A stretch of DNA of 62,231 nt, the filler included, from Asterionella formosa (lineage: Eukaryota), in NCBI GenBank assembly GCA_002256025.1. It is 14 parts of 14 records of this genome, joined end to end, with 100 filler letters (N's around TTAATTAATTAA, not from the genome) between each part and the next. Parts side by side here need not be neighbours in the genome. Positions count along the whole stretch, not along the records: positions 31,217 to 35,568 come from NKIB01013577.1; 13 more parts are not named here. The stretch is one strand, 5' to 3'. Positions 4,368 to 58,569 of the stretch are shown here, piece after piece (the stretch's first letter is position 1; each line of letters opens with the position of its first letter). A program made the translations under genes and the position numbers. Below the pieces are notes generated by a model. That model was not told the origin of the DNA. It ran no database searches and saw only the letters and a program-made list of their open reading frames with translations.

Positions 4368-4467
4368 NNNNNNNNNNNNNNNNNNNNNNNNNNNNNNNNN
4401 NNNNNNNNNNNTTAATTAATTAANNNNNNNNNNNNNNNNNNNNNNNNNNNNNNNNNNNNNNNNNNNN
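4368..4467. other. Artificial contig-joining spacer N44-TTAATTAATTAA-N44 (first of 13)
   Basis: Identical 100-nt spacers start at 4368, 8829, 13291, 17751, 22211, 26665, 31117, 35569, 40018, 44464, 48907, 53349 and 57791. The 12-mer gives stops in all six frames. Confidence 0.98.
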
Positions 4468-4947
4468 TGAGCTCCCAAAGGACAGAGCGGCTGTGCAGCT
4501 AAAGTGAAGGCGGACCACTCGACCGGGAGGCAGCGAGTCGCTAAGAGTAGTACTGACAGCAGCATCTAACATGATGGTACAATTGTTGTTGTTGTTGCTG
4601 CTGTTGCTGTTGTCTGCTGCAGTGCCAAGTGACAGTCTAGGTATGACCTATACAGACAAGTTCAGATTTGCTGCAATTCGAATCCGGATGATGATTATAT
4701 CAGTACCGGTATGATGCTGATGATGATCATACATGTTAAATCATGGTGTCAACAGATGAAGTGATGGACATCCTTCTACGGGTCGTTCGTTCTACCTGGT
4801 ACTACAAATCATAGGATCCAGAACCACAAACCCTACGTATGTCATACGTTTTGTACATGCACATGAGCTTATATTCGGCATGTCGTAAATCATATAACGT
4901 ATATTAACTTCACTTCTATAGCGCCTTTAAACTGCTCTACCGGTATT

Positions 4948-6000: not shown

Positions 6001-6764
6001 CAAAAAGCATTATCATTAAATTGAGAAATGCTTTTTAATGATGTGCACCCATCATTGCTTCAACTCAGATCCAAACAGACCGTTTCCACAACACCACACC
6101 AGTATGCAATCCTCTACAAGCATCATGATATAGAGGAATCATACTGAAAGTTTTGATTCTACTGTTGTTCTTGTCCTTGCCATGGATTTTTTAATTATCA
6201 AATTTAATTGATGATTGCTGGTATCATGATGTTGTTTGAGTAATATTAGCTATCACAGCCAGGTTGTACCTGTAGTCTATATGCTAATACTAGCTACCAG
6301 TAGACTTGTTTACACTAATTAACACCTAGTAATGCAATTGCTTCTTTCTGGGATTTTGGTTCCTTTTTTATGAGGGGTTTTCTCGTTTGCTTGTTGCTCT
6401 AAATTTCTGCTCATTGCTATTTGCAATTGCATTTTGCTCTACTAAGTAGTTGTTCTTTGAAAGTCAGCATGTTTTAGAAATTGATGCTAGTTAGCTAGTC
6501 TTTCATAATTCTTGTATAACATTTCAAAGCCTTGCTGGTTTGAAGCCAAAAAGTGATCAAAAGGAGGAATTTCTGGATTTTCTTGTTTCCTCAAGCATGT
6601 CAACTTACCTGGGCTTTGAGGAGGAGATCGAAATGAGAAGAAACCTGATTTTCTTGGTCCTTTTGCTATTGCTATTAGCGGCATGCCAGTTGAGAATTCA
6701 GTCCCCTAATCCTTTTTGTACTATAATATGCATACCAGTAGTCTATATCGCCATTGGCCATTAA

Positions 6765-6960
6765 GGTTCCTGCATTTGAGGTAGGGTTAGAAGATAATAT
6801 TCAGTCAGAGTAGTCAAACACACATTTCTTACGAGTAAATTATAAATGTATATCGCTTAACAGAGCTTTCACCAATATTAACCCTTGTTTCCATGTGCTT
6901 AGATACAGTCATTGATCAAAGTAGAGGTATAGGTCAACGCTTTATGATATCGTCAGGATT
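6765..6960 (+). mobile_element. Non-autonomous repeat family A (TTAA|GG terminus, Kolobok-like), copy 1
   Basis: TTAA-GGTTCCTGCATT...GAGGTAGGGTT...GAGCTTTCACCA aligns with 16426 onward, 38052 onward and (reverse) 47440-47600. Confidence 0.7.
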
Positions 6961-7723
6961 ATTTCGAAATTTAAGAAATGGCAGAATGATGTCAGAGGGG
7001 AAATGTGCGGATTCAACTGATGATGCCTTGAAAGGCGATTTCGTTAAAAAAAATTGGCCCAAGGTGCCGTGTGAAACCTCAGAAAAGATAGATACTGCAC
7101 CACCCGTGAATCGAACACGGGGCCCAACGATGGCAACGTTGGATTTTACCACTAAACCAGTGGTGCTATTGGATGGTGACATTCTAAAATGATAACAAGT
7201 ATTTATACCGATAAAACGTTTTCCAGATAGAGCATGGTGCAGGTACAGGTACAGAACGTACATTTCCAAGAGAACTTGACCGCCAAGTACCGGTATGTAC
7301 ATACTTACGAAAATGTACCTGGTACTGGAATTGCCTTGCAGTTCATATGTACGGTACGCACCAGTGTAAAATGTCGCGAAATACGTAATATTCCGATGCA
7401 CCAAATCTGATACAAACTGTCAGGTACCAAGTACCTGTACATACATTTTATGATTCGTCGGCGTCGATTTTTTTCAGTCGCCCAAAAGAATCGTTGACAC
7501 GAATCGACACATGAACGAAAGAATAATAAAGCGTTTTATGCCATCCGTGTTACTTTTGTTATACTGCTCTCACCATTATTTTCTTTTCAGTTCTTGTTTT
7601 GTTTGGGTAGTACAAAACAGCAATCCACGACGAGGAATATTTGGAAATTGATTGCTGCTCCACAGCAACAGTAACATCATCAACAGCGATTATTTCACCA
7701 ACCATCAAGGCCACTCAAAAAAG

Positions 7724-7963: not shown

Positions 7964-8961
7964 TAAATGGATAGAGCGAACCTATCACGCACGACGAGAG
8001 ATGCCCAGTTACTAAAATGACTAATATTACATAGATTTTTTTTACGATAAGGGATTGATCGAAAAATTGCATAACTTGGTACGAAGGTGAGCAGTTCATC
8101 CTCCAAGCTCCATGTAAGGAAAAAGCGGGTCATGACACTGTAACATAAAGTGAATTCACAATTGCTCTTTATCGCCCTCTTAAATGAATTTGAATTTCCC
8201 TAAGAACATTGTAGATGTCATTGCCCGGAAGGATCCCTAGATCAAGTAACGGTAGCAAATTTCCGTCCCAATCGGCGGCTATCTGCAGATATTTAAAAGT
8301 ATGCTCTGCTAAGCCATTTTAAATGTCCATCTCATCATTTCGACCAAAGCCCACACTTGAGATGCAAGTACCAGGTAGCAAGGCATCCCCTTACTTGCTA
8401 TTTTGGCGACAAGTCGACATCATCAGTGGTGCACTACGCACAGAACACGTACATGATATACCGGTATGCCAGCAGTTAAAATGATTGTCATGATGGTTTT
8501 GTATACTTGACGAAATATTGATGCCAGCCAGAACTACCCACGTTTTACGGTTGTTCATCCGACGACGTACAGTACCGGTAAATAGGCTATTTCCGTTTCT
8601 ACATAGCAACCTGGTACCCGTACCCCGGTACTTACAGATATTTATGATAGTCTCCAACCGGTAGAACCGAATTATTATTACAACTGACGAGTGTACATGG
8701 CGGTACAAGGTACCGTTATACTACCGGTAAGCGTGTGGGCGAACCTGCTGGCTGCCTATCATACGAATATCGGAGGCCAACCGGTCGGCGTGGAATGTAT
8801 TACGGGCTAGGTGCGGGAATTGCAAACANNNNNNNNNNNNNNNNNNNNNNNNNNNNNNNNNNNNNNNNNNNNTTAATTAATTAANNNNNNNNNNNNNNNN
8901 NNNNNNNNNNNNNNNNNNNNNNNNNNNNAACAAGAACCAAATCACAACGAACAAATCAAAC

Positions 8962-10069: not shown

Positions 10070-10553
10070 NNNNNNNNNNNNNNNNNNNNNNNNNNNNNNN
10101 NNNNNNNNNNNNNNNNNNNNNNNNNNNNNNNNNNNNNNNNNNNNNNNNNNNNNNNNNNNNNNNNNNNNNNNNNNNNNNNNNNNNNNNNNNNNNNNNNNNN
10201 NNNNNNNNNNNNNNNNNNNNNNNNNNNNNNNNNNNNNNNNNNNNNNNNNNNNNNNNNNNNNNNNNNNNNNNNNNNNNNNNNNNNNNNNNNNNNNNNNNNN
10301 NNNNNNNNNNNNNNNNNNNNNNNNNNNNNNNNNNNNNNNNNNNNNNNNNNNNNNNNNNNNNNNNNNNNNNNNNNNNNNNNNNNNNNNNNNNNNNNNNNNN
10401 NNNNNNNNNNNNNNNNNNNNNNNNNNNNNNNNNNNNNNNNNNNNNNNNNNNNNNNNNNNNNNNNNNNNNNNNNNNNNNNNNNNNNNNNNNNNNNNNNNNN
10501 NNNNNNNNNNNNNNNNNNNNNNNNNNNNNNNNNNNNNNNNNNNNNNNNNNNNN
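10070..10553. other. Intra-scaffold assembly gap (484 N, no linker)
   Basis: The N run lacks the TTAATTAATTAA linker and lies between the LRR and ARM arrays. Confidence 0.95.
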
Positions 10554-13290
10554 CTATTCGGATTCTGTCTGCTATGAATATTCATTCATCCAATGCTTCT
10601 GTTCAAGAATATGGTTGTGCAGCACTTTGGATTTTGGCTTCGAATGACGAAAACCAGGTGACAATTGCTGAAGCAGAATGCATCCCAACGATTCTTTCTG
10701 CTATGCAGATTCATTCATCCAATGCTGCTGTACAACTCTATGGTTGCAGAGCACTTGGGAACTTGGCTGTGTATGACAACAAAGACAACTACAACCAGGC
10801 AATGATTGCTGAAGCAGTAGGGATTACTACAATTTTGTCTGCTATGAAGAAGTGGTCATCCAATTCTAGTGTGCAAGAAAATGGTCTCATGAAGCTTCAG
10901 AACTTGGCTGTGAACAAGAACCACCAGGTGACAATTGCTGAAGCAGATGGTATCACTACAATTCTGTGTGCTATGAAGAAGCATTCATCCAATGCTGATG
11001 TTCAATACTATGGTTGCGGAGCACTTAAGAATTTGGCTGTGTATGACAACAACAACAAGGTGATGATTGCTGCAGCAGGAGGCATCACAATGATTCTGTC
11101 TGCTATGAAGAATCATTCATCCAATGTTAATGTTCAACACCATGGTTGTGCAGTACTTTTGAACTTGGCTTTGAATGAGAACAACCAGCTGACAATTTCT
11201 GAAGCAGAAGGTGTCACCACAATTCTTTCTGCTATGAAATATCATTCATCAAATGCAAATGTTCAACACTATGGTTGTGGAGCTCTCAGGAACTTGGCTC
11301 TGAATGAGAACAACCAGGTGACAATTGCTGAAGCAGAAGGTATTACTATGATTCTGTCTGCTATGAAGAATCATTCATCCAATGCTAAAGTTCAATACTA
11401 TGGTTGTGGAGCACTTTGGAACTTGGCTGTGAATAAAAGCAACAAGGAAGTAATTGCTGCAGCTGGAGGCATCACAATGATTCTGTCTGCAATGACGAAT
11501 CATCTATCCAATGCTATTGTACAGCACTATGGTTGCGCAGCACTTTGGAACTTGGCTGTGAATGACAACAACCAGGTGAAGATTGCTGAAGCAGAAGGTA
11601 TCACTACAATTCTGTCTGGTATAAAGAAGCATACATATAATGCAAATGTTCAACACTATGGTTGTGGAGCACTTTGGAACTTGGCTGTGAATGACAACAA
11701 CAAAGTGGTGATTGCTGCAGAAGAAGGTATCACTATGATTCTGTTGGCGATGAAAAAGCATCCATCCAATGCTTTTGTGCAGCACTACGGTTGCGCAGCA
11801 CTTTGGACTTTGTCTGTGAATGACAACAACCAGATAACAGTTGCAAAATCAGAAGGTATCACTTTGATTCTCTCTGCCATGAAGAATCATTCATCCAATG
11901 CTAATGTGCAGCACTATGGTTGTTTAGCACTTGGGAACTTGGCTGTGAACGAGAAAAATCAAGTGGTGATTGCTGCAGCAAAGGGTATCACTACTATTCT
12001 TTCTGCTATGAAGAATCATTCATTCAATACTAATGTTCAACACTATGGCTGTGAACCACTTGGGAACTTGGCTGTGAATGACGAAAACAAGGTGGCAATT
12101 GCTGCAGCAGGAGGTATCATAATCATTCTATCTGCTATAAAGAATCATTCATGCAATGCTAATGTGCAACACTTTGGTTGCAAAGCACTTGGGAACTTGG
12201 CTGTGAATGAAAACAACCAGGTGACAATTGCTGCAGCAGAAGGCATAACTACAATTCTGTCTGCTATGAATAATCATTCATCCAATGCTAATGTTCAACA
12301 CTATGGTTGTTAAGCACTTGGGAACTTGGCTGTGAATGACAACAACAAGGTGTCAATTGCTGCAGCAGAAGGTATCACTAATATTCTGTCTGCTATGAAG
12401 AATCATTTTTCCCAAGCTAATGTGCAGCAACAAGCGTGTATAGCACTTGGGAACTTGGCTGTGAATGTCAACAACCAGGTGAAGATTGCTGAAGCAGAAG
12501 GTATCACCACAATTCTTTCTGCCATGAATAATCATTCATCCAATGCTAATGTTCAACACTATGGTTGTGGAGCACTTTGGAGCGTGGCTGTGAATGACAA
12601 CAACAAGGTGGCAATTGTTTCAGCAGAGGGTGTCACCACAATTCTGTCTGCTATGCAGAAGCATTCATTGAATGCAAATGTACAGCACTATGGTTGTTTA
12701 GCACTTGGGGAGTTGGCTGTGAATGACAACAACAATATGGTTATTGGTGTAGTAGGAGGTATCACAATGATTCTGTCTGCTACGAAGAATCATTCATCCA
12801 ATGCAATTGTGCAGCATCATTGTTGTTTAGCACTTGGGAACTTGGCTTTGAATGACAACAACAATTTGGCAATTGCTGCAGCAGGAGGTGTCACTATGAT
12901 TCTGTCTTTAATGACAATTCATTCATCCAATGCTCATGTGCAGCACTATGGTTCTGCAGCACTTTGGAATTTGGCTATTAATGACAACAACAAAGTGGCA
13001 ATTGCTGCAGCAGAGGGTATCACTACAATTCTATCTGCTATGAATAATCATTCATCCAATGCTAATGTTCAACATCATTGTTGTGGAGCACTTGGGAACT
13101 TGGCTGTGAATGACAACAACCAGGTGACAATTGCTAAAACAGGAGGCATCATGATGATTCTGTCTGCTATGAAGAATTATTCATCCAATGCTAATGTTCA
13201 TCACTATGGCTGTGGTGCACTTGGGAACTTGGCTTTGAATAAGAACAACAAGGTGTTGATGGTTGCAGCAGGAGTTTCCAATATGATTCT
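10554..13290 (+). pseudogene. Armadillo-repeat array (about 21 x 43 aa) with one in-frame TAA; probably the continuation of the 8962 gene
   Basis: 129-bp tandem units, consensus MKNHSSNANVQHYGCxALxNLAVNDNNQVTIAEAEGITTILSA. TAA at 12311-12313 splits two same-frame ORFs. Truncated by the contig end. Confidence 0.8.
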
Positions 13291-13390
13291 NNNNNNNNNN
13301 NNNNNNNNNNNNNNNNNNNNNNNNNNNNNNNNNNTTAATTAATTAANNNNNNNNNNNNNNNNNNNNNNNNNNNNNNNNNNNNNNNNNNNN

Positions 13391-15358: not shown

Positions 15359-16398
15359 TTACCACAAATTGCGAAGTGCTGCTTTACCTTTTTCTTGAAC
15401 ACCAGCATTGGATGAGTAATTTTGCATAGCAGACTCAATTACGGCTTTTCCACCAGCATTGCATATTGTCACCTTGTTGTTTTCATTACTATCAGCCAAG
15501 TCATCAAGTGCTGCACAACCAGCATATTGCACAGTAGCATTTGAGGAATGAGTCTTCATTGCAGACAGAATTGTAGTGATACCTCCTGCTTCAGCAATCG
15601 TCACCTTGTTGTTTTCATTCGAAGCCAAGTTCTGAAGTGCTCCACAACCATATTCTTGCACAGTAGCATTTGAGGAATGAGTCTTCATTGCAGACAGAAT
15701 CGTAATGATACCTCCTGCTTCAGCAATCGTCACCTTGTTCTTGTCATTGGCAGCCAAGTTCATAAGTGCTCCACAACCATATTCTTGCACAGTAGCATTG
15801 GATAAATGAGTCTTCATTGCAAACAGAATCGTAGTGATACCTCCTGCATCAGCCATCGTCACTCTGTTGTTTTCATTAACAGTCAAGTTCTGTAGTGCTG
15901 CACAACCATATTCTTGCACAGTAGCATTGGAGGAATGAGTCTTCATTGCAGACAGAATCGTAGTGATACCTCCTGCTTCAGCAATTGTCACCTTGTTGTT
16001 GTCATTAAAAGTCAAGTCCCAAAGGTCTGAACAACCTTTTTTTTGAATGTCAGCATTCCGTTCATTCAATCTCATCTTTGAAAGAATTTTAGCAATCGGA
16101 AACGGAATTGAAGTGGTTGGAATTTGGGTTGAAGGCTGAGATTGTGTTGCTGGCAGAGAAGGAGACTGCTGAGGCATTGGAGTCACTGGAGCAGTAGGAC
16201 CTTGTTGGGTACTATTCAGACAATCGCATTTTGGGCTCCAAACAGATTCTTTTTGCAAAGTTGAATGTCTGGATGAGAAAGACAGACTGACAATCCATTC
16301 CTAATGAGCTCAACTTGTACACCATGCTCATTCAAAATTGGAGCGTCATTGTGGGTACGGGCGTATGAAGCATGGAGTGTAGGTGTAATATTCGCCAT
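15359..16398 (-). pseudogene. ARM-repeat paralog with the same Cys/His N-terminal module, no LRRs, frameshifted near 16235
   Basis: MANITPTL...DAPI...VELIRNG..CLSHPDIQ matches the 8962 N-terminus. A short deletion just before (C)PKCD shifts the frame into the 299-aa ORF, which has 5-6 ARM units. Confidence 0.8.
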
Positions 16399-17850: not shown

Positions 17851-18265
17851 ACTGCTCAATCAATGCAAATGTTACTTTTTTGAAAGGATTTTCGGCATTG
17901 AAGAAATGCAATCTCATTGAAACATTTCCCCCAAAGAGTAACTTTCCCTTGATAGATACCCATTCCTCCAATATGTTGCCAGAAATTATGATTTAAATGG
18001 AATGTATGTTCCTCGAAACTCCAATTTTCCTGCAATTGATCTGAACTGGAAGTGTGGCGATAGTGTGTGTGGTGTCCAGGTACATGTTTCCAACCATCAC
18101 AATGTACTGAAAAAGTTTACAGAAATGTGTAAAAAGGCGGGATGGCTTACAAAGTTCAAGACGATAAATTTGCTTTATTTAAGTCTTGAACGAAGTGTTG
18201 CTAATTCTGTTCAAAACCAAGCAGTATACCCTGTCTCAAGACTCTACAATGGCCTAAACCAATGA
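17851..18265 (+). pseudogene. Crinkler-like restriction-endonuclease-fold domain, 3' fragment
   Basis: GMYVPRNSNFPAIDLNWK..VCGVQVHVSNH; nucleotide paralog of 19617-19998; disrupted frames. Confidence 0.65.
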
Positions 18266-18640: not shown

Positions 18641-19998
18641 GTGATCATAGTGTATTATCATAGAGAGCTTACTTTTGAACCTACTTTACCTCCGTCTGAT
18701 GATCCTTTATCTCCTTCTGATCCTATTGGGCCCGTCTTTTACCCTGACGATTCTTACTGGATGAATGGGCTCCAAAAAGTGCGGTTTGATGATTGCAAGA
18801 GTCGGGGAATCTTTTATCGCCATGAAATTGTGAAGGCAATGTTAAAAGCGGTTGAAGATGCCTTCAAAAAAGGTGGTCCGGCTGGAATCATGATTAAGGG
18901 ACCGCATGGAATTTGCAAGTCGCACTCACTTGTCAACTTGGTTCGTACGCTGCAATATGACAGCAGCTGCAAGTACCTCGTAACTATGATTTCAGACTGT
19001 CAACGATGGGGCGACGTTGACGATTTGTATACTGCGATCTGCAGTTCATTTGGTACTTCATTATCTGCTCTCTCGTGGTCGAGCAGCTCAGCTTTGGATT
19101 CTCTTTGAGGAATACAATCACCCTTGCAAAATGGATTTTGACGAAATAAAGCTCGCCTTTGAAGAAGTATCTACACGGAATGACTGCGAAAAAGTTTTGA
19201 AAGTGACTGGTGGGGTACCCTGGCAGGTGAAGAAATTGATTTATTTTACCCTTTCTATCGATGATTATGAAGAGGCTGAATTGCGCACAATTCTGAGATC
19301 TTCTTGACAATTTGAAAGAAACGAAATCGTAAACGAAATTTGATCGTATCACCTTATCTGCGGTTTCTTGTGTTTTGATAACCATAGGAGATGAAAAAGA
19401 AGATGACAGGAAGTATTCAATTCCTGGTAAGGTGGAACATGCTGATCACTATGAGCCTTTGTTTCCTATGGTGATAGTAGCCTATCGACGTTACTTTTGG
19501 AAGGCTATCATGGCTTTTGTCCATGAACACGAGCAAGTACTTTTGTGTGTCTGTGACAACCCTAGTTTGACAAATGATGCTCGTGATCGGATTTTCGAAC
19601 TCATTGTGATTATTCGCTGTTCACTCAATGCAAATGTTACTTTGGAGGGATTTCTTTCTTTGAAAAAATGCAATCTCATTGAAACCTTTCCCTCCAAGGG
19701 GACCTTTCCCTTCAAATGAGTTGCCACAAATCATGGATAAGGATGGAACGTATGTACCCTAAAAATGCAATTTTGCTGCAATTGATCTGATCTGGAAGTC
19801 TGGAAAAAAGGTGTGTGGTGTCCTGGTACATACTTCCAATCACCACAATTTGTTGGAAAAGTTCAATGTGTGCAACGGCTGGAACAAAGCATTGCTGATT
19901 CTGTTAAAAGCAATATTCCTCAAACACAGGGGCCAATCACAGTTGTTGCACTATGCAAAAGCAGCATACCCTGTCTCACTAGTTTACAATGTCCATAA
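18641..19998 (+). pseudogene. Crinkler-like P-loop NTPase + REase-fold pseudogene
   Basis: Walker A-like GIMIKGPHGICKSH, TGGVP, RIFELIVI and YVP..NFAAIDLIWK..VCGV spread over several frameshifted ORFs. Confidence 0.7.
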
Positions 19999-30136: not shown

Positions 30137-33100
30137 TTCTGTGTGTGCTGTGTGTTGTGAATAGGAAGGGATGTGTAATTTCTTGTAGACTACTTGGAAG
30201 AAACGACAATACGAGGATGGACGTTTTGTTGGAATGCTGTGGTCGTTCATAAAGTATGTGATCATTACTATAATTATATATACCGGTATGTTTGTTCCAT
30301 GTACATACCGGTATGTTTATCCGGTATATGATACCAGGGAGTGTGTTGAAATGGTCCGTACTCCTTCCCGCTGGCTGGGTCTCTCTTCACGTAGACTCTT
30401 ACGTGATCGTAGTACTACGTAGTACCACTTACTTTCTCTCTTGTCTCTGCTTCTAGCCTTCCTGCTAGATAGACTAATTGACCTTCGTGTCAATTAACAC
30501 ACTGTTTCCTCGGTTGATAATCTAAAACTCAAATTAAATTATAAGCTAAACTAAATGTTTCCTTTCCATGCATCTTTGCTTCTGGCAAAGTCGTTCTAAG
30601 ACTCTCTTCGAGTTTCCACTTAACATTTCCATAGAAATCTTCAATCTTTGATCTCGTTAGACAGCTGATTGACGTGGCAATGCAATATTCGACTCGTTCG
30701 ATTACAATCGAGTCCACAATCCTTGTGACTCGGGCTAATATTCTTGACAGGAGTGCTGGTATACTACATCCATGTCACCTTTTGCTGGTGTGATACTCAC
30801 TCCCTTTACAAGGGTACCTGGTACCGGCATCTTGAGCTACACATGATCAATGTAACAATTGATCTGGTACCGATACTGGGCGCGCTCTGATAATAAAAAA
30901 TTATTATATCATGTGTATTATAGTAACACAAATCGTTGTACCCATAACCCCAAAATTTGTGTTTGTGTTGACCAAATTTTTTACAGTTATAAATAACAGT
31001 GCATTATATAAAAAGATGTTTAGACATGAATGACTATATAGAATTTCCCGGAATATTTCAAGACTTGCTTGCTCATACTCAAAATGGCTTGCTCTTGCCA
31101 AAATAGGTATGCATATNNNNNNNNNNNNNNNNNNNNNNNNNNNNNNNNNNNNNNNNNNNNTTAATTAATTAANNNNNNNNNNNNNNNNNNNNNNNNNNNN
31201 NNNNNNNNNNNNNNNNAATAAGAAACCCTTTCTCGCTATATATGTTTGCATGGGAATGGCAGAACCAGTGAGAGACAAAATGTTAAAAGTGAGTCCACAG
31301 CATGAACTGTGGCCCAATTGGGACAATGAATACCAGTGTGCATTGTCATTCCTTTGAAGGAGAAAAAACAACTCAGAAAAATAAGGAAATATCAAAAACA
31401 ACAGAAAAAGTAAAAAATATCAAAAACAACAGAAACATTTAAAAAAATATAAAAATATAAAAAGCACACAATGTGGTGCACCCCCCCCCCCCCCCCCCAA
31501 ATGGTTGATTTTTATTCTTGACTAGCTAAACCAGGATACCCTTGCTAGTAGGTAGCTCGTACACTAGTGGTATACAACACAGTGTATTGTTGTTGCTATT
31601 GAAGCAAGCATTGAAATGAAACAACCAAAATGCTTTCACTTCTATGGGCTTGCGAAGCAATGTATAATGACACTCCATTGAATGAGTCTAGTCCTAGCTA
31701 CTACATCTGTTGGCTGTAGAAAATACATAGAATTAAGCCTAGAACATTCTCGTAGTATACTTCTTATCACTAAACTGCTTTGTGTTTACAAGCTCTTGTG
31801 GCATCAATCTAAACTAATACAATGATAACCACAAGTCTATGCTTTTGTTGACCTTTGGTTGTTTCCAGATCCCCTACCGGTACCGTAGTGGTGAAGGCAA
31901 TACATGCCTGAGGTGGCCTCATTCATGTATAGTGATTCCAATTCCAAATTGATTCATGTGTATCTCTTTTGATTTTTCATTTAATAAACCACCTGACCAC
32001 CTGGTTGTTTGGAATTGACTGTAACTTTAATCTGATTTAGCCTACAATATTGAGACCTAGGATCTTTTTACTTATTCTGCCAGTTGGTACCATAGTAGCT
32101 AGGATTTGCTTAATGTTTGACCGTTTTGATGAAAGTATCAATGTCCCTTGATGTGTGATGTCATCATTTCAACCCAAATGCCATCACAGCCGCATACCAA
32201 CATAACACTGTAGTTAATTATGATACAACGTACCGGTAAACATAAGGTGAAGTAAGCAATGTATTGCCCATGAAACATGCAATATATCATACACCTTTTG
32301 ATGGATTCATGTACAGGGTACCTGAGGTACTAGCCCACATAGGCACTTGAATGTAATTATTTAGCTTAGATTATGCTTTTTCTATAATCAATACACTACA
32401 GTGTAGTCATTCTGAATGGCTGGAGAGCGAAAATTGCATAATGTTGTCTCAGCCTTGACCATGACAAAGATTAAAAAAATAACTTAATGAAAATCAGAAT
32501 GACGCTTTGCTATTTGGTATGTACAATAATGACATCATCGACAATACAATCAAAACAATTATGCTAATTACACTGATATTGACAACGAAAATTGAAGACG
32601 CTGATGGCACTTTTTTCATGCAAATCAGTGATGCACCATTTTAAAAATGACCTGTTACAAGGAGCTTTGACACTTTTACAGTAATTACTCAACAAATAAG
32701 ACTACGACTACGTCGATAACAAGAATAATTGGAGCAACAGATGTTAAATAAGTTATTTATCTACTGAGAATTGATTGATTACGAATTGGCATGTGAAAGC
32801 TGACAAATGTCAAATATGCTGTCAAAACTACTACTAGTAATACCCTATAGTTATTGTTTGACAGCCCCTTCATGCAGCATACATGTGAGTGCTTAAAGGA
32901 GAACAGAACATCATTATGAAATAATGCTACACATAGTGATCCACTGTTATTACCAGCATATTGTCGACATAGTACCAGTAGACTAATGCTGGTAAATCTC
33001 TTTCCTTCTGTAGTGACACATGCAGTCATCTACATATGAATTAAGGACTGTGCATGCTTGTCTACAAAGTTTAAGAAAAATATTGCTTAAAGTTGTCTTG

Positions 33101-33839
33101 ATTTAATTAGATTCCATCATTTTCTTAAACCTAAATAGTCTTTCAGTACTTTAACCCAAAATAAAACGATTTGGAAAGTAAAATGGCTGTTGATCCAGTC
33201 TAGTACAATAGTAGTAGCTAAGACACCAAAGATGCTAGTTGTTCTTTGACAGGAATGGGAGGTTGGGATTGGAGGGCAAAAGCCAGCAAGGCTATTTACA
33301 AGGGTTGAAAGGAGTAGACTGAAATTTATTTACTGCTGGTGCAAAATTCTGTGGGAGACAGTTGCAATGCTAGTTTGTGCTGGTGATACTCCTGCAAACA
33401 CAGCAATAGACCGAATTTATGAGCCATATGGCCAAGACCAAACAGTGACATACATACTCATGCATCTGATAAAAGATTGTTGCACTGGTGGGCATTCACT
33501 ACTGTGTGTTTAGATAATTTCATTGAAATTTTAAAATTTGCAATGTCTTTAGTATTTACGTTGCTTGTTTAGTACCTCAATTGTTATTAACTATTTTATC
33601 TCCTAGTAGTTTCATGGTTTGCATGTTAACATGCATATTACTAGAAAACTGGGGAGGTACAACAAGGGATTTCATTTCATGATAAAGCTATTAGAGGTGA
33701 TGGTATTACCCACTCTATACAAGGCAGTATATACTGAGCTTTGTCGAAGGTGTGCTAGTTAACTACCACTGCACTACATAGTAGTGACGACTTAATGTAC
33801 CAGGTACCTGTTACCCAGTCTAAACGAGTACCGGTACAT

Positions 33840-34085
33840 CGCTACATAGCTTTTTTGTCGAAGGTGCTGAAGGCAATACAATCCCGAGGTGGTCTCTTGC
33901 CTGCGAGTATACATGTGTTCGAGGCTGGGTGGCGCGAGTAGGTTGACCATACGAGTGGCGCCCCCGGCGCTGCAAGAAGGTCACCCTCCGAGTGCCATCC
34001 CAGCCGAATACACATGTATACGAGAAGGCAAGTAGCCGCCGAGAAGGGTATTGTTGAGGCAATTCCCGCTCTAGCTATCGTCGCG
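33840..34085 (+). ncRNA. Putative structured RNA/ssDNA: long rod-like hairpin with periodic tandem G.A internal loops
   Basis: Arms about 33872-33962 and 33966-34055 pair by Watson-Crick and G.U pairs, interrupted five times by CGAG opposite CGAG/CAAG/CGAA. Expression and function unknown. Confidence 0.55.
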
Positions 34086-35668
34086 TCATTCGCTTACCTA
34101 CTGCCCACAAATTTTGCATAAATGTCAATTTTAGCCTACTATTGCCCATCATATAAAATATATTTTGGATATTTCCTATCTTCACCTCGGAAATTGCCAA
34201 AGGTCCGATATTGCCCATCATTAAAATTTAATTTTTATATTTCATATGTTCGCATTTTGGCAAGACAACAGACGCCAATTGCCCCTCGGTTTGTTTCCAG
34301 CCCTGGGATTGCCGAAATCGGCAAGGGGTCTACTTAAGGAAACCATTTTATATACTATCCAGATTTTGATAATTTATATCCAGAATTCACCTCGTTTTTG
34401 TTCGTCTCCTGAAAAGTGGACTCCGGCAATTCACCTTTCACCATGCCAATCGTCGTCCATCATGACCGGTTTGAAGCGAAATCAGTTCCGCGATGACGCC
34501 AGTAGCGATTCTTTGCCTAACGGATGCGGTTGATTGTTGGATTGCTTGTCTTCTCGAGGCATTCATGTAGTTGCATCGTCCATATTTCGTCGGACGAATG
34601 ATGATATCGATACATCTGATGTTGGTGGCAAGTTTTTGCTCCGGTCATGTATGTAATGATGCTTAACGGATATTCTACCGGTACCGGCAGTCATCTAGTC
34701 TACATACGTACGTGGTACTGAAAACAACCATGCATGGTTTAAGCTATGGTTTAACGCTTACTTTGAACACGTAATAATATAATTTCTGTAGACTCGGTAT
34801 TATTTTTACGAGACCTGAAATGTTGAATTATATCGTTCACATATTCATTGATTTTACATACCGTATGCCCGATTTCGTCCTCACAAATACCTTTGCTCTA
34901 TTCGGGCTTGCAATAGGCAACGTTCGTCTTTCTTTTATCCCATCGTCTGCTGCTTGTTATGCTAGTTGAAGCGGATCGGTGAGTACAACAGTGAAACACT
35001 GAATCTGGATTGTAGATCGTATTTATCGACTTTCCGATTTGATTGCTTCCATGGTTTGTTTTGATCGCTTCCATCGTTGTTTGTCGTTACGCACTGTCGT
35101 TTTGTTTCGATTGTACATATCTACATAAGAACCAATGCATTTATCAATGACTACTCATTGAAGATGTGGTATTGTGCCGTTGTTGATCGTATTTGTTGAT
35201 TTGTATAGTCGTTGACAATGATGTCAATATCGCCACCAAGCAATGCTTTTCTTGTACTAACGCGCTTTGCTACAATTCTACTACGAGCTCGTATCAGAAG
35301 CTACATGAATACTCAGCTAGAGAGAGTCAATAGTGCTGGAGCAGCGTGGCGATCATGCTTGCTCAGAATGGAATGATCAGGGTTGCTTGTTTGGTGGGCA
35401 GCGGAGAGGAATGACTGTGGCGGAAATACTGCTACTGGTGTCAGGCTACTACAGCGATGCGCATGGTTGCAGAAACCAGACTATTTACGCTACATATCGA
35501 TGCAGGTCAAGATTGGGTTCAGCTTTTCCCTTCTTATTTTGGTCTTCGATTGTGTGGTGATGGAAAGTNNNNNNNNNNNNNNNNNNNNNNNNNNNNNNNN
35601 NNNNNNNNNNNNTTAATTAATTAANNNNNNNNNNNNNNNNNNNNNNNNNNNNNNNNNNNNNNNNNNNN

Positions 35669-35765
35669 TGTTCAATGCAATATTCCTGAAACCCAGGGGC
35701 CAATCACAGTTGTTGCACTATGCAAAAGCAGCATACCCTGTCTCAAAACTCTTCAATGGCCATGT
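35669..35765 (+). pseudogene. Third fragment of the Crinkler-like gene 3' end
   Basis: Near-identical to about 19902-19996 (GCAATATTCCT...GGGGCCAATCACAGTTGTTGCACTATGCAAAAGCAGCATACCCTGTCTCA). Confidence 0.65.
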
Positions 35766-38051
35766 TTGTAAATCATATAATTAGTTGAATTTATCAATAC
35801 ATAAGAACTCAGCACGCAAAGGCGAAGGTTTGAAGAGATGATATATCAATGTCCTCAATGGCATGAAGTTTGGGATTGACTGCTTGGCAGTATGGGTCAC
35901 AGATGATAAGGGAATTGGAAGGGAAATAGGGATTTCAAGTGTTCTTCAATTATTGGAAATAATTACATATATTTTTATAAATGATAGTGAATAAGAAAAT
36001 TTATGAGTATGCTTTAATAAACTTGACTGAGTGTGGAGGCTGGTGGATTGTTTTGGAAGGGCAACAGGGTTGGGCGCAGCGAACTAGCTAATGGGTGATA
36101 GTCCCCTACAGGCGCTTTTTGCATTTAATTTGACTGGTTAGGCCCATGTACCTACCGATAGGATACAGCACTTCGATCCAAATTATGGCTTGGTGCGCCC
36201 CCGAAGTACATCAGGTATGCACCGGCCTGTTGTACCAGTAGCTGGTTTTAAATTCTTTGCAAAATTTAGCACAACCCAATATTTGTTTTGCATACATAAA
36301 GTAGAGTCGTCATAGTTGATGTTGTTCATTTCCTCTTTCTTTAAATATACGAATGAACATACCGGCCCTTGAATCATCATGAATCTCTTGACAAATACAT
36401 GCCACATACACTGAGCCACAGCCTCACACTCGATTGCTACACTCACCATGATGATATCTCTGTTTGTCATTGTTTGATCTTCATCATCAATGCCTTGATA
36501 TAACTTTGATCGACCAGCAATGGCTTCCTCATTGAGTCCCAGATGTTCTTGGTGACAGGTAGTACCATTCGTTCCATGTTCCATGAGCTTGTTGGAAACT
36601 TGCAATTGATTTTCAGTGACGAAGGTAGAACAAATAGAAAGAAACACGACAAATAATAGCAATACTAACAAGCAAGGCACTGAAGGTAATCCATCCTTGC
36701 TATCAGCATAAATCCAATGCCCATGTCTGAACATGAAGAGTCAATTTGTCAGAATTGCCAAAAGCTTGCCGAGGTGAATACTTTCTACAAGTTTCTGCCA
36801 AAAAACAAGGAAAGGAGAAAGATATCTACAGGTTTCAACAAAAAGTACAAGAAGTATTTGATCCATTGGGAAGAAATTTAAAATGATGCAATTGATAAGA
36901 GAGTCTTGGAATTGAGACGATTTACTTTCGTGGTGACAAGAGAATGCCTTGCATCAATCAAGAATACAAGAATGGTGTTATGGGGAATGTACTAGGTCCT
37001 CCTTTATTGTTTGTTGAAACAGGAACATGTATCCTCACAAATTTATTTTCTGAAATTGAGTGTGCTCAATATATTTGATGTAATTTCTGTTTGTAAACAG
37101 CTATCTTTGGAGGAAGAAAAAAAAGAAAGGCAATTAAATCTTGAATGCATTGCATTTTTGTCTCCACTAATGGCCATACAGGCAGAGGACATTAATATAA
37201 TTGTTGCAAAGCACACAAAGCAACAAGGTGGACCAAAGGAATGAAGATACTTGTTCTCAACCACATATGATTCATAATGGTGCTATATAATTGAACTTAC
37301 TAATTCTTTCCACTTACTTCGGTATGTTATTAATTACATTCTAGCATTAATTATCTTTCTTAGCAGTTTTGAGGTTGACAACCAATGTTAAAATTGCTCA
37401 AAACTAAAGTGGAATGAGTGCGCTCGAGGAACCATTGACTCATTCTATAAGTCCAAATGTTACAATTCTTGAACCAGCAGTGAACAAGCAATCCACAAGA
37501 TCACAGTAAGGAACAAAGATAAGAGAAGTTTAGTGATGGCCATTGCCATGGCCGTTGTGATGACCAAAATACAAGCATTTTTGAGCAATAAATATTTTGA
37601 AGGTGACCAGTCAAGATTCTCAAGGCCTGCCTGCTTATCCCAATTCAATGTTATCTGTCTAATCTTTGCACTTGGAATGTATTTATGTCAATTCAATGCA
37701 GCTCTTGAAAAAATTAGTTGTTTCCAGGCCATCACCATGACAAGAGATTTGTCACTTTTTTAACAGGCTTTGAGGACGAGCAAAAATGATGAGCTTCTCG
37801 ATCCTTGGATGGCAAGAATGTACTCTGCAGTAGTAGATAAAATGGTTGTAAATTACGGTAACAATCAGCATTATATATGCCGCCATCCTCAGTTGGTGAG
37901 ACTGTAGACATTGCTTGCTGGTGTTACTCCTTTGCAAGGAAGAAAAGCATTTATCCATGGGATTCTAGAGTACTGGTAATAGTTAAGAGGAATAGTGTAT
38001 GATTTTATGCAGTTACTATGTCCAAATAAATTACGGCTGTTCCATTTTTAA

Positions 38052-38762
38052 GGTTCCTACATTCCAACCCTAGTTTAGAGGTAGGGTTAAAAAATATAGA
38101 ATCAGAGTACTCAAACAAACACTTCTTACAAGTGTAACATAAATGTTTATCACTAAACGGAGCTTTCACCATTACACACACTTTCCATATGCTTAAATAC
38201 AGTCATTGACAAAAGTAGGGGTATAGTTCAACGCTATATATTGTCAGGATATAGGATCTGGCAAGAAACTGCAGAAAGGAACTTCGGTTTTTTAACTATG
38301 CTAAAAGACTCGAATTTCTCGCTGGAAGTTATAAACTGATGCTATTTGAAGTTTACCTATATAAATCGGCTTCAGACCCAGCCAAGGTTGAGCTATCGTC
38401 GTCCAAAAATTCGACCAAATCGGCCTTTTCTACGGTCTCCAAAATATCGGAATCAGAACTACTTAGAGCCGAAACGTCATCATCTGAATCAGACAAAAAT
38501 TCGACCAAATCGGCCTTTTCTACGGTCTCCAAAATATCGGAATCAGAACTACTTAGAGCCGAAACTTCATCATCTGAATCAGAGTCTTGTGATGCAATAT
38601 TTAGTCGTAAAATTTCCTGTACCAAAAATTCCATTGTAAGTGCGCGCAGTATTATATATGCACTGATTGGCTATTGCGAAATGCTTACCTCCGTTTGATT
38701 GTCCCAAGAATTGCAAACCCACACCGGCCACATTGGATACACAAGTAACATTTTCTTGGGTA
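38052..38762 (+). mobile_element. Repeat family A, long copy with an internal 90-bp tandem duplication
   Basis: Starts TTAA|GGTTCCTACATT; collinear with 16426-17120 but has lost the right arm of the internal inverted repeat. Confidence 0.8.
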
Positions 38763-38783
38763 TACCGGTAGGCCGGTACCAGG

Positions 38784-40017
38784 TGAAGTATCTAACTAGA
38801 AGTAGTAGTATTTGTTGAATATATAAGCTTATTAATTAATCCTTATGTACAACTCATTTCCTGAACTGACATCAAAGTATAGAATGGGTGCTAGTCGAGT
38901 TCTCTCAATATACAATTCCGATATATTTGATATAACCCTAACCCTAAATACATCTGTATCGATGTGCAGGATTGCTCACTCTCCCACACTTGAGGGAAAA
39001 CCTTTTACCTATGAAAAGGTTTGATACGACGAATATTAATTTGTTCTGTAATGTGCATAGTGCGTTGAAAAGTAACTGTACCATTGGCGTGTACTTGAAT
39101 AATAGTATAAGGACCTCGTCCACGATCATCCAAAGTAGTAGGATTATCCAATAATATTAGAATCTCGTCACCCACTTTGTAATCATAAGATCGACGACGG
39201 AAATTAGCACGACGTAAACGTTCGTCAATTATCACTTGTCGACGTTGATATATTAATTGTAAATCTGTAATCAAAGGAATATTTAATATCATATCACGTT
39301 GAAAAACCCATGCTCCTGGTGAAATACATAATATACTATGAATAGTAGTTCGAGCTGGATATGATGCAGCTGCAAAACATGTATCCACAATATTTGGGCT
39401 TGAAATTCATTGATTGGAGGATGAGCCTTTAACATAACTCGTAGACTATTGCTGATAGATTGATGTAAACGTTCACAGATAGCATTTGCTTGTGGATTTT
39501 CTACAGTAGTAGTCATATCTTTGATTCCATTCAATACTAACATGTGTAAGAAAGGAGCACCAGTAAATTCACCTCCATTGTCATGTATACAACGTTCTGG
39601 ACGGGGATATCTGGCTAACCAATCATTTTCAAATTTCATCGTAATATATTCTGATGTTTTATTGGTGATACGTGAAATTTTTGCTAAATTGGTGACTGTG
39701 TCAATACAAGTTAGAGCACGAAATTCAATCGTTTGAGCAGCCACTATTATCTTCCATGGACCAATTAGATCTACTGCAACTTCTGACCATGGTAATAATA
39801 ATGCATTCCTGGGTGGAAGTTCACCAAAACCAGTACCAGGTAATTTTGTACGTTGACATGCTTCACATACTCTTACAATATGTTCCACTTTTGCTTTTAA
39901 TGTAGGGTGATAAAAATGTGTAGCAATTGTAGCATTTAATCTTGTCATACCAACATGAGCAAACATCTGATGATACCAATTAATAATAGGATCCAATAAT
40001 GATGTAGGAATAGCAAT
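38784..40017 (-). mobile_element. Ty3/gypsy retrotransposon 3' end: frameshifted integrase, polypurine tract and 3' LTR (38978-38784)
   Basis: HHCC (WYHQMFAH..CEACQ), VAVDLIGPW, IHDNGGEF and NPQANAICERLH; frameshift near 39390; stop at 39005; purine tract GGGAGAG, then TGAG...TTCA LTR. Confidence 0.9.
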
Positions 40018-41322
40018 NNNNNNNNNNNNNNNNNNNNNNNNNNNNNNNNNNNNNNNNNNNNTTAATTAATTAANNNNNNNNNNNNNNNNNNNNNNNNNNN
40101 NNNNNNNNNNNNNNNNNGTTAGCAATGAAAGTATCCGGCACCATTGTTTGCTAATAAAATAAATATTCAGTACGACATTTACTGCAAAGGGTCACCTCAA
40201 CATTCCCCGAGCTCGCCATTCATTACTCGTCATTGGTGTCTAGGTGTTTTGTACACATATTTCTTCTGTATACCGGCATTCGAGTAAACTACCGGTAAAG
40301 ATTTTGCAGAACGTGGCACACAGCAAGGTAGGAAACAAGAAAAATCACTCACGGTCCAATGTGGTGAACTGACGACATTACATTCGTATGCATAGAATCC
40401 AAGCACATAGGGGGCTATATTGGCGATATATATGGAGATTAATTCTTGAATTTTCAATGGTTCCAGCAAGATGAGATGATGTACCGGTGGTACTGGTACA
40501 AGACTAACGATGGGATCACACGGCATGTTCCAGTGTCATGTTTATTGGGGTACCCTGGTACCAGGTGGTACCAGGTACTACCGGTAAATGAACATAACCC
40601 AGAGTCAGTATTTAGTGTGACAGAATCTTCAACCACACTATTAATCATCTTGCACATGGCCATGATTGCATGTCACAGGGTGAAGTTGACATTCACAATA
40701 TCAGATGATAGCAAGGGGATGTCAATGTAGTGTTTTCGGTTGACTAACAAGAAGGTCATGGCGATCCATCATGTTACTATTTTTCCAAATTTCCTGATGA
40801 GTGATCATTTATCTAAACAAATGGTTGATTGTGTTACATTTAGAACATCAAGTCCATTTCTAGACCAAGTAAATGCTGGCAGGTAGGCTTATATTTCTGG
40901 AAAAACTCTCTTTATGAACACTTTAGCTTGAATCAATGTAGCACTACATAAGTACATGTCTAAATCAACCAGCATGATGGTGCATTGACACAATATTCAT
41001 GAGGTTTCCTTTATTGTCTAAATGAAATTATCAAAATATGTAAAAAAACAGAAATCAATGTCACAATATAAATATCAAGTTGAGCAGGATATTGTCACTT
41101 TTTTCTGTCATCCTCTCGGTGACTGGTTTGGAATTCTGGTAGATTTATTCCCTCCTGCTTGTATGTAAATACTAATACTAATAATATAAATCGAACCTAC
41201 GGATATGTATAAGGTCGGCCCTAAGCTCGTTTTAATTTCCAGTTCACTTACAATAGAGTATACTGGCAATTAAAGTCTCCAAACATCTATAAATAGCCAT
41301 CAATGTTCACTTCACCATCAGC

Positions 41323-47747: not shown

Positions 47748-48906
47748 TGTCAAGAATATAGCATCAATGGCTATAATGAGTCACAAGGACTGTGGACTCG
47801 ACTATAGTCCAATGAGTCAAATGGTGCGTTCCCATGTCAAGAAGCTTGCTAACGAGATTGATGTCTTAGATCAATCAGAAGAAGGTTTACATCAACGAAA
47901 AGGGAACACGAAGAACAGGTTCTCGAAGTGTGATGAATGGGATTGAAACTTAGTTTTAGTTTAATCTTATAATTAAGAAACAGTGAGAATTGACAGAGTA
48001 AGGTCAATAACGAAAACTAGCACAAAGGCTAGCAGCAGAAAGAAGATAACAATACTAGTGGTATTGCAGGTAAGTTCTACGTAAGAGGAACCCGTCAGAC
48101 GGGAAGGAGTACGAGACCTTTCAACACGCTTTAAAGCGTCCACTTTAAGGCCACAGGCTACTCAGGAACGATGGGAAGTGACGAAGACACGTCAGTGAGG
48201 TTGCCGACATTCGATGGGCAAGATGCTAAATGGCACATGTGGAAAGCGAAGTTTCTCGCATACGCGTGCTACAAGAACTTTCAAGAAATACTTAACGGTG
48301 ACGAACTACCCAGAGGAGAGAAAGACCTAAAGGGCGATACGATCGTGTTGTCGGATGCTGACGAGAGACGCATCCGAAGGAGCAACACAGTTGCTTACGC
48401 AAGTCTGATAATGGCATGCCAGAGTGGGCCATTCGGACACGTAAATAATGCAAGAAGTGCCGAGTTTCCTAACGGCAATGCTAAAGAAGCATGGGACAAG
48501 CTCATTTCGACGTATGAGTCAGGCAACATGGCGAATGTCATTGCCTTGTCCCACCAATGGACGAAGTGCACTCTAGGGGAAAACGAGAACCCCGACAGCT
48601 GGTATGTGGAGTTGGATCGAATCCCGGAACGATTGGGCAATACAAGCTCTGCCGTTTCGGATGGTGCCTATGTGGCACACATGATCAACAACCTACCGGA
48701 GAGCTACAAGAGTTTGGTAGTAGGAAGGTTCGGCCTGGCGCGCAACACGCTAACGGTCGAAGAGATTAAGACAGACATCCGGGACTACTACGATCTATAT
48801 GTCCGGGATGACGTCAAAACGACTGACAAGAACAAGAGTGAACAGGCCTTCTACACGAAAGGGAAGTTCAAAGGTGACTGTCGTAAGTGTGGCAAGTATG
48901 GCCACA
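47748..48906 (+). mobile_element. Ty1/copia retrotransposon 5' end: LTR (about 47748-48126) and gag ORF (48171 to contig end)
   Basis: Gag motifs LPTFDG..WHMWKAKFLAYA, AKEAWDKL, NNLPESY and zinc knuckle CRKCGKYGH; LTR TGTCAAG...TTTCAACA (left edge tentative). Confidence 0.88.
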
Positions 48907-49006: not shown

Positions 49007-49132
49007 CTCATTTCCTGAACTGACATCAAAGTATAGAATGGGTGTTAGTCGAGTTCTCTCATTATTGAATTCCGATATATTTGACATAACCCCAACTCTA
49101 TATATATCTGTATCGATGTGCAGGATTGCTCA
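49007..49132 (-). mobile_element. Gypsy LTR 5' portion (same family as 38784-38978), cut by the contig start
   Basis: Aligns with 38853-38978 and ends exactly at the TGAGCAATCC LTR start. Confidence 0.85.
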
Positions 49133-49538
49133 CCTGGTACCTGGTACCGGTACTATTGTATCAGGTTGCTTGACCGGACACTCTGACACAGACGGAAAGC
49201 AAATACAATCTTGGTACCAGGTACATACGATAAATTCTTCACACGAGTGCAGCACAGGACGGAATCCAGAATCCATTTATATGACTCCCGTGATGATGTG
49301 CGTCGAAATTGGGCAGCAAGCACATCACAAAATATATATATGTAGCTACCGGTATAATGCATGTGTGAAAATCGTACATGAATTTGTACGGTTGACCTGG
49401 TATGTATACATGGTACTCAATGCACTATGTACCGGTATGCGCTCTATCATGTGACGATTAGAGCTAAATCTCGACCATACCCGCTATAATCATATGCTTG
49501 TTAGATGCTGGCACTCACTCTCTCACAACACTCCAATC

Positions 49539-57567: not shown

Positions 57568-58569
57568 TATGAATTGATCATACATGTAACTGTAAAAGTA
57601 TTATTTAGTAAAAATCCTGTACCACTTAGGGTACAAGACCCTTGATCCTATTTACATGATACTTTGTATTTGTGGACGTGAAAAATGCAAATGCTATTGG
57701 CCAGTAAAATAGAATCAGTGATTCCATTGAAATCTCGTACATTTTACGATTTCTTTTCCCAGTTCGCTCCTTCCAAGCGGCGTACCTTCANNNNNNNNNN
57801 NNNNNNNNNNNNNNNNNNNNNNNNNNNNNNNNNNTTAATTAATTAANNNNNNNNNNNNNNNNNNNNNNNNNNNNNNNNNNNNNNNNNNNNCGCTAATTGA
57901 AAATGATCAATACTATTTCAGATTGCGATGTTATGCTGAAGACTGCCTTGATAGATGGAACAGAAGTGTAGGCGAGCGAGCTGTAAACGAAGAAACGATT
58001 ATTTCCAGTAGGAGGCAGCTGGGAAACCTTCCTGCGAAGTAGTAGGGAGATATAAAAACACTGAAAAGAAAACTAGACTACTTGTTCTAGATATAAACGC
58101 CGTAACGTTGCGCCACTCCCGAAATCGCAAACTTTGTCATCGATACATTGATTTGATGATGCTCTCCGAGCTGTGCGGCAGTACAAGGTACCGCCGTTGG
58201 CTATGTACCAGGTACCTAGGACCACTTTATCCGTGTGTTGAATTTCAACTTTATGACCTTGAACTTTACTCGTTGATTTGAGGAAGAACAATTGATCGGT
58301 CGAGCCATTGACGTTTGTACGACCAAAACTCAGAACGAGACGCTGTTACGGGGTTCGGGTTACATTGTACCTGTATGTGGTCTTATGTACACTTAGTGGA
58401 TGTTACATTTTCCGTACCTATGGAACTTGATTCCGTATGTATGACGTACATACTGTAGAAGTACATTTTAACCCACAATTGGAACCAGGAAAGGTCCGGC
58501 AAAACACGTTTGTCATTAAGAAAAGATTAAGCTAAATATCTCGATTTCCGGACCTTGCAGGTAATTTCG

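Follow-up and report, generated by a model that had tools for sequence, protein, structure and literature searches.

The + strand of the Asterionella formosa DNA analysed here (the window, 62,231 nucleotides long with filler included) holds at 33865-34061 a rod-shaped hairpin interrupted by five tandem G.A loops, each closed by C-G pairs. This hairpin stands at the extreme left end of a multi-copy repeat, carries the same CGAG word at its loops family-wide, folds better on one strand than on the other, is present in RNA libraries and has been retained across subfamilies. The architecture is real, non-random and common to the whole family, and its ordinary genomic role is that of a repeat end. 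The reading that we favour takes the hairpin as the conserved left end of a mobile-family element, bearing a cis-acting + strand fold that is most likely RNA; as a whole we regard this reading as an even call. The hairpin is composed of the following parts.

33865..34061, + strand: terminal hairpin module, recognised by its MFE structure, the ladder of its two arms and the sharp end of likeness at 33865 in 6/6 left-arm copies.
33865-33962, 33963-33965 and 33966-34061, + strand: left arm, apical CCC loop and right arm of the MFE structure.
33885..33888 against 34040-34043, + strand: loop 1, CGAG facing CGAG, found in long and short forms.
33904..33907 against 34021-34024, + strand: loop 2, CGAG facing CGAG, found in long and short forms.
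33920..33923 against 34005-34008, + strand: loop 3, CGAG facing CGAA in the window copy; G at 34008 in other copies gives CGAG.
33935..33938 against 33989-33992, + strand: loop 4, CGAG facing CGAG; the right side reads TGAG in the metagenome copy L006.
33952..33955 against 33973-33976, + strand: loop 5, CGAG facing CAAG in the window copy; G at 33974 in other copies gives CGAG.
33917..34011, + strand: distal rod (loops 3-5 and the tip), missing in short-form copies and bounded by ACATGT on either side.

A first-pass annotation had placed all the CGAG words and the helices between them within 33840-34085, and every one of these coordinates proved exact. In the window copy CGAG faces CGAG at 33885/34040, 33904/34021 and 33935/33989, and the words at 33920 and 33952 stand opposite CGAA (34005) and CAAG (33973), respectively. 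Loop 2 is adjoined by an additional G.A mismatch (33903 with 34025), the longest unbroken helix of the rod has 12 pairs, and the first four bases of the element (33865-33868) pair with 34058-34061. In the Turner model each intact CGAG/CGAG 2x2 loop contributes -0.7 kcal/mol, compared with +1.1 kcal/mol for an unrelated 2x2 loop of the same rod (33893-33896 vs 34032-34035). The word itself is strongly concentrated: the 207 nt of 33865-34071 contain CGAG eight times and CTCG not once, and 5000 dinucleotide-preserving shuffles contained 1.34 CGAG on average and 5 at most, not one of them attaining 8. This is the only CGAG cluster of such density across the window. At the DNA level the two arms are 70.5% identical over 139 nt (blastn).

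We folded both strands and compared them with shuffled sequences. The + strand of 33840-34085 reached -121.9 kcal/mol (shuffle mean -81.2, z -8.8, 0 of 200 shuffles equal) and the - strand -99.5 kcal/mol (z -4.8). For the core, 33865-34071, the RNA MFE was -109.9 kcal/mol on the + strand vs -89.1 kcal/mol on the - strand, with 71 pairs, eight of them G.U, in the + strand structure. As for the extent originally proposed, 33840-34085, the sequence from 33865 onward belongs to the element and the outer left part of about 25 nt (33840-33864) is flank, unrelated in other copies. Within this flank, 33840-33851 is complementary to 34073-34085 past the right arm (about 11 pairs), which lengthens the fold of the window copy only; the pairing is probably due to chance, because the flanks of other copies have no such complementarity.

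The hairpin is single-copy in the window, except for a 39-nt relic, and multi-copy in public contigs and metagenome loci. According to a run index, part of 33700-34300 is present in 20 public runs (14 studies), most of them freshwater, lake or estuary metagenomes and six of them RNA libraries; most of the 20 hold a third to half of the words of this segment. We aligned to 33300-34700 (1401 nt) the contigs of four runs, X2 from DNA and X10, X16 and X19 from RNA, bearing in mind that contigs tell neither the strand, nor the ends, nor the level of an RNA and that RNA libraries may contain DNA; X16 covers only 13 of 30 bins, and its thinly covered parts were excluded as evidence. Summed contig depth rises in a step at 33864 (from 10 to 112 in X2, from 12 to 7445 in X10 and from 24 to 3038 in X19) and in these three runs remains over flank level up to the end of the segment. 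X10 alone places 798 contigs there, across all likeness bands (136/200/279/183). Loose contig ends just before 33865 were found in 4/4 runs. In X10 they comprise 27 contigs with an agreement of 0.37, that is, with differing flanks, and because these contigs pass beyond 33865 into varied sequence, an RNA that starts exactly at this position is at most conjectural.

Seven loci (L001-L007) were recovered when JGI/ENA metagenome contigs were scanned for exact words, and six of them are copies. The remaining one, L005, is a 20-kb GC-rich contig that shares only the 20-base search word (L005:2001-2020) and was treated as a chance match. Counting the window, six copies contain the left arm (window, L001, L002, L003, L004 and L006), and all six begin alike at 33865 with TGCTGAAGG, which reads TACTGAAGG in L001. 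Their left flanks are unrelated, and the base preceding the element end varies (G, T, A, T, G, T). In L001 a tocopherol-cyclase gene of the host (Pfam E 5e-114) lies in the flank, 218 nt away. A DNA contig of X2 (1990 nt) follows the left flank over 33570-33867 with one differing letter and is then unlike the window, which suggests an empty site in a near-identical genome. Elsewhere in the window there is sequence matching the flanks of L002 and L004 at about 80-85%, so the metagenome loci belong to organisms related to that of the window. Since host sites differ between genomes, the element is, or recently was, mobile. These observations dispose of the idea of a free-standing structured-RNA gene: the hairpin is the left-terminal module of a repeated, non-coding, apparently mobile element with varied left flanks.

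On the right, the sequence is alike in 4/4 copies that reach past the right arm (window, L002, L003 and L006). L006 is collinear with 33865-34581 (90.7%), L007 with 34012-34992 (90.7%) and L003 with 34005-34363 (96.1%); because each stops only at the end of its contig, the element measures at least 1128 nt (about 1.13 kb). Outside the hairpin we recognise the following features.

34062..34992, + strand: non-coding element body, collinear in other copies; its ORFs have no Pfam match.
34140-34183 and 34209-34251, + strand: two 44-nt direct repeats, 84% identical and conserved between copies.
31889..31927, + strand: decayed terminus relic of 39 nt that starts at element base 1, with 1 mismatch in 15.

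The body (34062-34992) has no conserved frame, and its copies differ from one another by indels of 1, 2 and 3 bases. Both 44-nt repeats begin with ATTGCCCATCAT and contain an A/T-rich, TATA-like stretch. GGCAAT/ATTGCC occurs at 8 sites in 33872-34430 (about 560 nt), out of 49 in the window, and both repeats are part of this cluster. In the relic, CGAG has turned into CTGAG. In three runs another continuation is found after 34092 (agreement 0.97-1), which shows that there are subfamilies with a common hairpin and a different body; given one 1393-nt X10 contig that aligns only across 33863-34064 (80% threshold), sharing of the hairpin alone with a more diverged body is possible. The family is an abundant, unclassified repeat of freshwater and estuarine diatom-like algae, strong in metatranscriptomes.

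The facing CGAG words had been seen in a single copy, and the comparison bears out that they are no accident of that copy, as the majority of run contigs and L006 both restore CGAG at 33974 and 34008. The A>G change at 34008 accounts for depths of 64.9/64.9 in X2, 1919/1929.5 in X10, 28.4/28.4 in X16 and 128.9/128.9 in X19, and that at 33974 for 42/44, 1255.4/1464, 28.4/28.4 and 78/97.2, respectively. With these letters the family majority carries CGAG at all ten places and forms a cleaner rod than the window copy. Further, the majority C>A at 33988 regains a U-A pair with 33939, the majority A>G at 33949 turns an A.A mismatch into G.A, and 34004 C>T, which some of the contigs carry, turns G-C into G.U. 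L006 carries nine CGAG. Losses of the word in single copies are mostly CpG-type transitions (CAAG at 33973 in the window, TGAG at 33989 in L006 and TGAG at 33952 in L004), a pattern that, judged from the sequences, would be expected of methylated, unselected insertions; the change in L006 leaves the closing pair of loop 4 in place as G.U.

Between the window and L006 the hairpin is identical at 199 of 207 positions, and the downstream sequence shows 251 matches, 32 mismatches and 9 gaps, followed by 198, 20 and 1. Between L003 and the window the contrast is weak (103 of 106 in the hairpin vs 279 matches, 10 mismatches and 3 gaps in the body). An alignment of six sequences, two of them full length, covers the 71 pairs: 69 are invariant, one has gone from G-C to G.U, another no longer pairs, and no pair differs on both sides. 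With 69 of 71 pairs invariant and double changes at 0 of 71, the case for selection on pairing is carried by the strand bias and the retention of the motif.

The strand bias, claimed earlier for the window, holds in two natural copies, window and L006, in which the + strand is better by about 20 kcal/mol (for L006, -110.4, z -9.8, vs -91.1 kcal/mol on the other strand). The non-Watson-Crick positions of the + strand in the shared sequence are 8 G.U, 12 G.A, 1 C.A and 3 pyrimidine-pyrimidine; the 12 G.A are the ten in the loops, that of 33903/34025 and the one given by the majority G at 33949. A decaying DNA palindrome is expected to have equal numbers of G.U and C.A. The observed eight G.U against a single C.A (one-sided binomial 0.02, our own arithmetic from the fold) agree with the view that the wobbles favour the + strand, and could alternatively stem from a transcription-linked C>T bias in a master copy. 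Under DNA parameters the strand gap shrinks (-51.7, z -6.6, on the + strand vs -46.9 on the - strand) and the basal, G.T-dependent helices do not form; these model energies favour RNA over single-stranded DNA as the folded molecule, short of settling the choice.

Some copies depart from the full rod. L002 and L003, which lie at differing sites, are short forms without 33917-34011 in which the two bounding ACATGT words merge into one near-palindromic apex, and joints in X10 and X19 contigs skip 33903-34012, 33907-34009, 33908-34010 and 33923-34009. We think a deletion between the two ACATGT words simpler than an insertion with a 6-base duplication. Of the five loops the short form retains 1 and 2, and its fold is weaker (-40.3 and -37.2, z -3.5 and -2.4). 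As it lacks the other three and sits at two sites at least, spread does not require the complete periodic array. L007 begins at the centre of a palindrome, and in its first 55 bases (L007:1-55) the exact complement of the left arm replaces the right arm, directly before ATTCCCGC (34062); one X10 contig has a similar joint, from 33865 to 34071 on opposite strands. Such a flipped arm could result from a flipped hairpin, from arm conversion or from self-primed copying of a strand ending exactly at 33865, and self-primed copying could also have happened during cDNA synthesis. L004 has a 6-base TACCGG insertion within its left arm. Palindromic short words of GGTACC / ACCGGTAC type, to whose kind this insertion belongs, are found in the window at 33797-33837, 31878-31888, 32228-32238 and 34674-34688, and by blastn also at 23690, 58203 and 58774.

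Searches for a known family or class gave the following. No Rfam family matches the hairpin: Rfam 15 at gathering thresholds gave 0 matches in the whole window, and at E up to 10 the segment 33000-35000 gave three weak matches, none over 33865-34071. One of them, at 33461-33543 (+), is SCARNA7-like (20.6 bits vs a gathering threshold of 65, E 0.022), involves the ends of the model only and is most likely a chance match. The hairpin comes close to an ordinary MITE, the explanation reserved earlier as a possible refutation, in being part of a repeat, and departs from a self-contained one in that 4/4 copies share downstream sequence. We dropped a MITE or foldback unit bounded by inverted repeats, with sequence unrelated on the left in 6/6 copies and alike on the right in 4/4. 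No left-flank word of at least 7 bases recurs within 14 kb downstream as a target-site duplication, and the 6-mer matches at 35823 and 36620 mark nothing like an element end. A search of the window for an inverted copy of the terminus gave five matches at up to 3 mismatches (shuffle mean 1.63), none convincing.

LTR-like traits are the TG start, the pair of 44-nt direct repeats, whose TATA-like stretches lie 275-390 nt from the start of the element, and the non-coding content; the element could be a solo LTR. We found neither a second copy of 33865-35568 in the window, nor a shared internal or PPT sequence upstream across 6/6 left flanks, nor a gag/pol ORF between 33865 and 39288. The clustering of 8 of the window's 49 GGCAAT/ATTGCC sites inside 560 nt is a trait like those of class II elements, and no transposase, Rep or RT linked to the element was found among the window ORFs. 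A Helitron or Replitron (HUH) end was rejected: there is no Rep-like ORF, the preceding bases vary, and the hairpin is about 200 nt long, not 11-20 nt. Kink-turn, SECIS-like and hammerhead readings were discarded as well, all five loops being symmetric 2x2 loops with no bulge. Two hairpin words gave 0 and 0 matches in a viral contig collection, and the hairpin tip word gave 0 in prokaryote genome contigs. A scan for sigma-70 promoters and terminators, models not relevant to a eukaryote, was not above shuffles.

Among the alternatives to a cis-acting RNA fold, the one that deserves most thought, although we consider it unlikely on balance, is a structure of the DNA end with no RNA role, that is, the recognition region of a cut-and-paste or HUH/rolling-circle transposon or of an LTR. 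In that reading CGAG and GGCAAT/ATTGCC would be protein-binding words on double-stranded DNA or in a transient single-stranded hairpin. The ten same-strand CGAG at 15-19 nt and the eight GGCAAT/ATTGCC sites do resemble class II subterminal repeats, yet four bases are too few to specify a DNA-binding site, and words on double-stranded DNA leave unexplained both the register of CGAG opposite CGAG and the 8:1 ratio of G.U over C.A. Single-stranded DNA would also fold significantly (z -6.6), but with its G.T-dependent basal helices failing under DNA parameters. The exact complement of the left arm in L007 and one X10 contig would be a flip or arm conversion at the DNA level, and the TG start and U3-like tandem repeats with TATA-like boxes fit an LTR; against this, no transposase, Rep or second LTR was found, nor any convincing inverted terminus. 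Hairpins at one or both ends are general in Rep/HUH transposons, according to PMC10288648, which reports no Replitrons from diatoms.

A transposon-borne hairpin RNA cut into small RNAs (hpRNA or miRNA-like), for host silencing or for self-regulation of the element, we regard as improbable. Its length, stability and strand bias, the presence of this repeated element in RNA libraries and the mismatch spacing of 11-15 pairs, which resembles that of miRNA precursors, would suit it, but five identical G.A loops are not known among Dicer substrates, the position at the extreme end and the retention across subfamilies point to a role in cis, and inserted copies decay. We give similarly little credence to an absence of function, in which a decaying inverted duplication or foldback would have had its CGAG loops fixed by chance in one master copy. 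The copies are close relatives (90-97% identity), so that shared features may be there by descent, 69 of 71 pairs are invariant with no covariation seen, and single copies decay freely; this account nevertheless has to meet the same two-fold-symmetric tetramer in 5/5 loops, the 0 of 5000 shuffles with 8 CGAG, mismatches that all favour one strand, CGAG/CGAG as the only kind of 2x2 loop in the rod scored as stabilising, and a hairpin better conserved than the body in the comparison with L006. Very improbable indeed is a free-standing, single-copy structured RNA gene: a strong fold with no Rfam match would fit, but the same repeat always follows the hairpin downstream, and the hairpin occurs in many copies with different left flanks.

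In the reading that we prefer, a cis-acting + strand fold at a mobile end, the first 200 bases or so from 33865 are the conserved left end of a non-coding element that measures 1.13 kb or more and occurs in multiple copies, at differing host sites, in a diatom-like alga and its relatives. The source lineage of the family would maintain a single-stranded fold of the + strand, predicted as a rod of short helices (up to 12 unbroken pairs) with five C-G-closed tandem G.A loops and many G.U pairs. We believe that the element uses this fold in cis, with RNA as the most likely folded molecule. Through the tandem G.A loops the rod would stay stable while the two DNA arms become unlike, and a protein, whether from the element or from the host, would find on it five identical sites of two-fold symmetry; we infer this binding, with end recognition, packaging, export or stability as putative roles of the bound protein. 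Folding as RNA rather than as single-stranded DNA and a benefit to the element are likewise presumed. Inserted copies would not be selected themselves and would lose CGAG through CpG-type decay. A more specific conjecture, which we hold to be doubtful, is that the periodic C-G-closed tandem G.A array is itself a selected architecture, giving a stable RNA or ssDNA rod from non-palindromic arms and a terminal cis signal, for a family of diatom mobile elements, read five times by a dimeric protein. If so, it would be a new class of transposon cis-element, with G.A loops as a natural repeated recognition code.

The loop motif is a known one. According to PMC5900564, (5'-GA-3')2 loops make up 20% of the 2x2 loops in the structure database and are sheared when closed by CG, in agreement with the earlier description of these loops as C-G-closed tandem sheared G.A pairs; an imino-paired reading was dropped on the same ground. 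Each of the five loops of the rod is this same motif. Tandem G.A is otherwise known as a single or occasional loop in rRNA and other RNAs. A full-text literature search retrieved no mobile element with a terminal rod built on a periodic array of five such loops, and no such array in diatoms. Terminal hairpins of mobile elements are common; the search turned up no description of one in which the same self-pairing word parts the arms at five fixed sites and every non-Watson-Crick position favours one strand.

Several known systems share traits with this one. Like foldback elements and MITEs, the element is multi-copy, non-coding and hairpin-forming, with varied flanks and internal deletion derivatives (the short form). 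It differs from them in that its arms adjoin each other at one extremity of a larger unit (1.13 kb or more) and do not bound the element; in that the arms are held different at five fixed sites by the same word, in place of drifting or being homogenised; and in that neither a target duplication nor a second end was found. The constitutive transport element (CTE) of Mason-Pfizer monkey virus (MPMV) contains a rotationally symmetric pair of identical internal loops, and the LTR of HTLV-1 contains the Rex-responsive stem-loop. The algal hairpin is comparable to both as a long imperfect stem-loop at or near a terminal repeat and, by analogy, its identical internal loops would suit repeated binding of one protein. 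However, there is no likeness in sequence, the loops are 2x2 tandem G.A in place of large bubbles rich in purines, an alga is the host, and no second LTR, PBS or PPT was found for the element. Parvovirus-type replicons have flip/flop inverted terminal repeats, in which the Rep-binding element consists of GAGC repeats. As in these and in hairpin-recognising HUH transposons, the terminal hairpin is imperfect, the arm of L007 is 'flop'-like and CGAG is a permutation of GAGC; unlike in them, the words are 15-19 nt apart and not in tandem, there is no Rep gene nearby and the element is chromosomal. The flipped state is also rare here, unlike in parvovirus-type replicons (one copy vs six), and may be an artefact of cDNA snap-back.

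If the fold is selected, the family would be a compact natural system for tandem G.A pairs as repeated protein sites, and would show how an RNA hairpin can be had without a fragile DNA palindrome. In metatranscriptomes the family could pass for a gene or for a virus-like RNA.

As to the surroundings, the description of an ORF-poor contig applies to the local region and not to the whole window, where we counted 29 ORFs of 150 aa or longer and found Pfam domains in several of them. Counted between stops, no ORF in 33865-36183 reaches 103 aa; the longest local one (34225-34533, 102 aa) is in a frame not kept in other copies. For the element together with 35669-41300, the coding capacity found was a decayed integrase fragment at 39289-40017 (-), for which no link to the element was shown. 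The long intron-free ORFs of the window encode cactin, PP-loop/DUF924, MFS, response-regulator, copia-gag and integrase domains; for the PP-loop protein, the closest Atlas cluster is commonest in Bacillariophyta, which is a lead only. In the vicinity of the copia-type gag (48171-48906, +) and of the integrase debris (39289-40017, -), 38853-38979 and 49007-49133 share 127 nt at 93%; these regions are other retroelement debris, with no link to the hairpin element shown. A dispersed short repeat, which starts directly after an N run, joins 35669-35763 with 19902-19996 and 18219-18254 at 89-92% identity. The N runs recur about every 4450 bases (e.g. 4368-4467, 8829-8928, 13291-13390 and 57791-57890) as 44 N, 12 bases and 44 N, with one run of 484 N at 10070-10553, and their regular spacing looks like an artefact of masking or scaffolding, not biology. 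Finally, a tandem array of a 129-nt (43-codon) repeat lies inside ORFs at 10518-13290 (+), with an inverted partial array 2-5 kb away at 15477-16121, and L002 contains the same 129-nt repeat at 75-85% identity.
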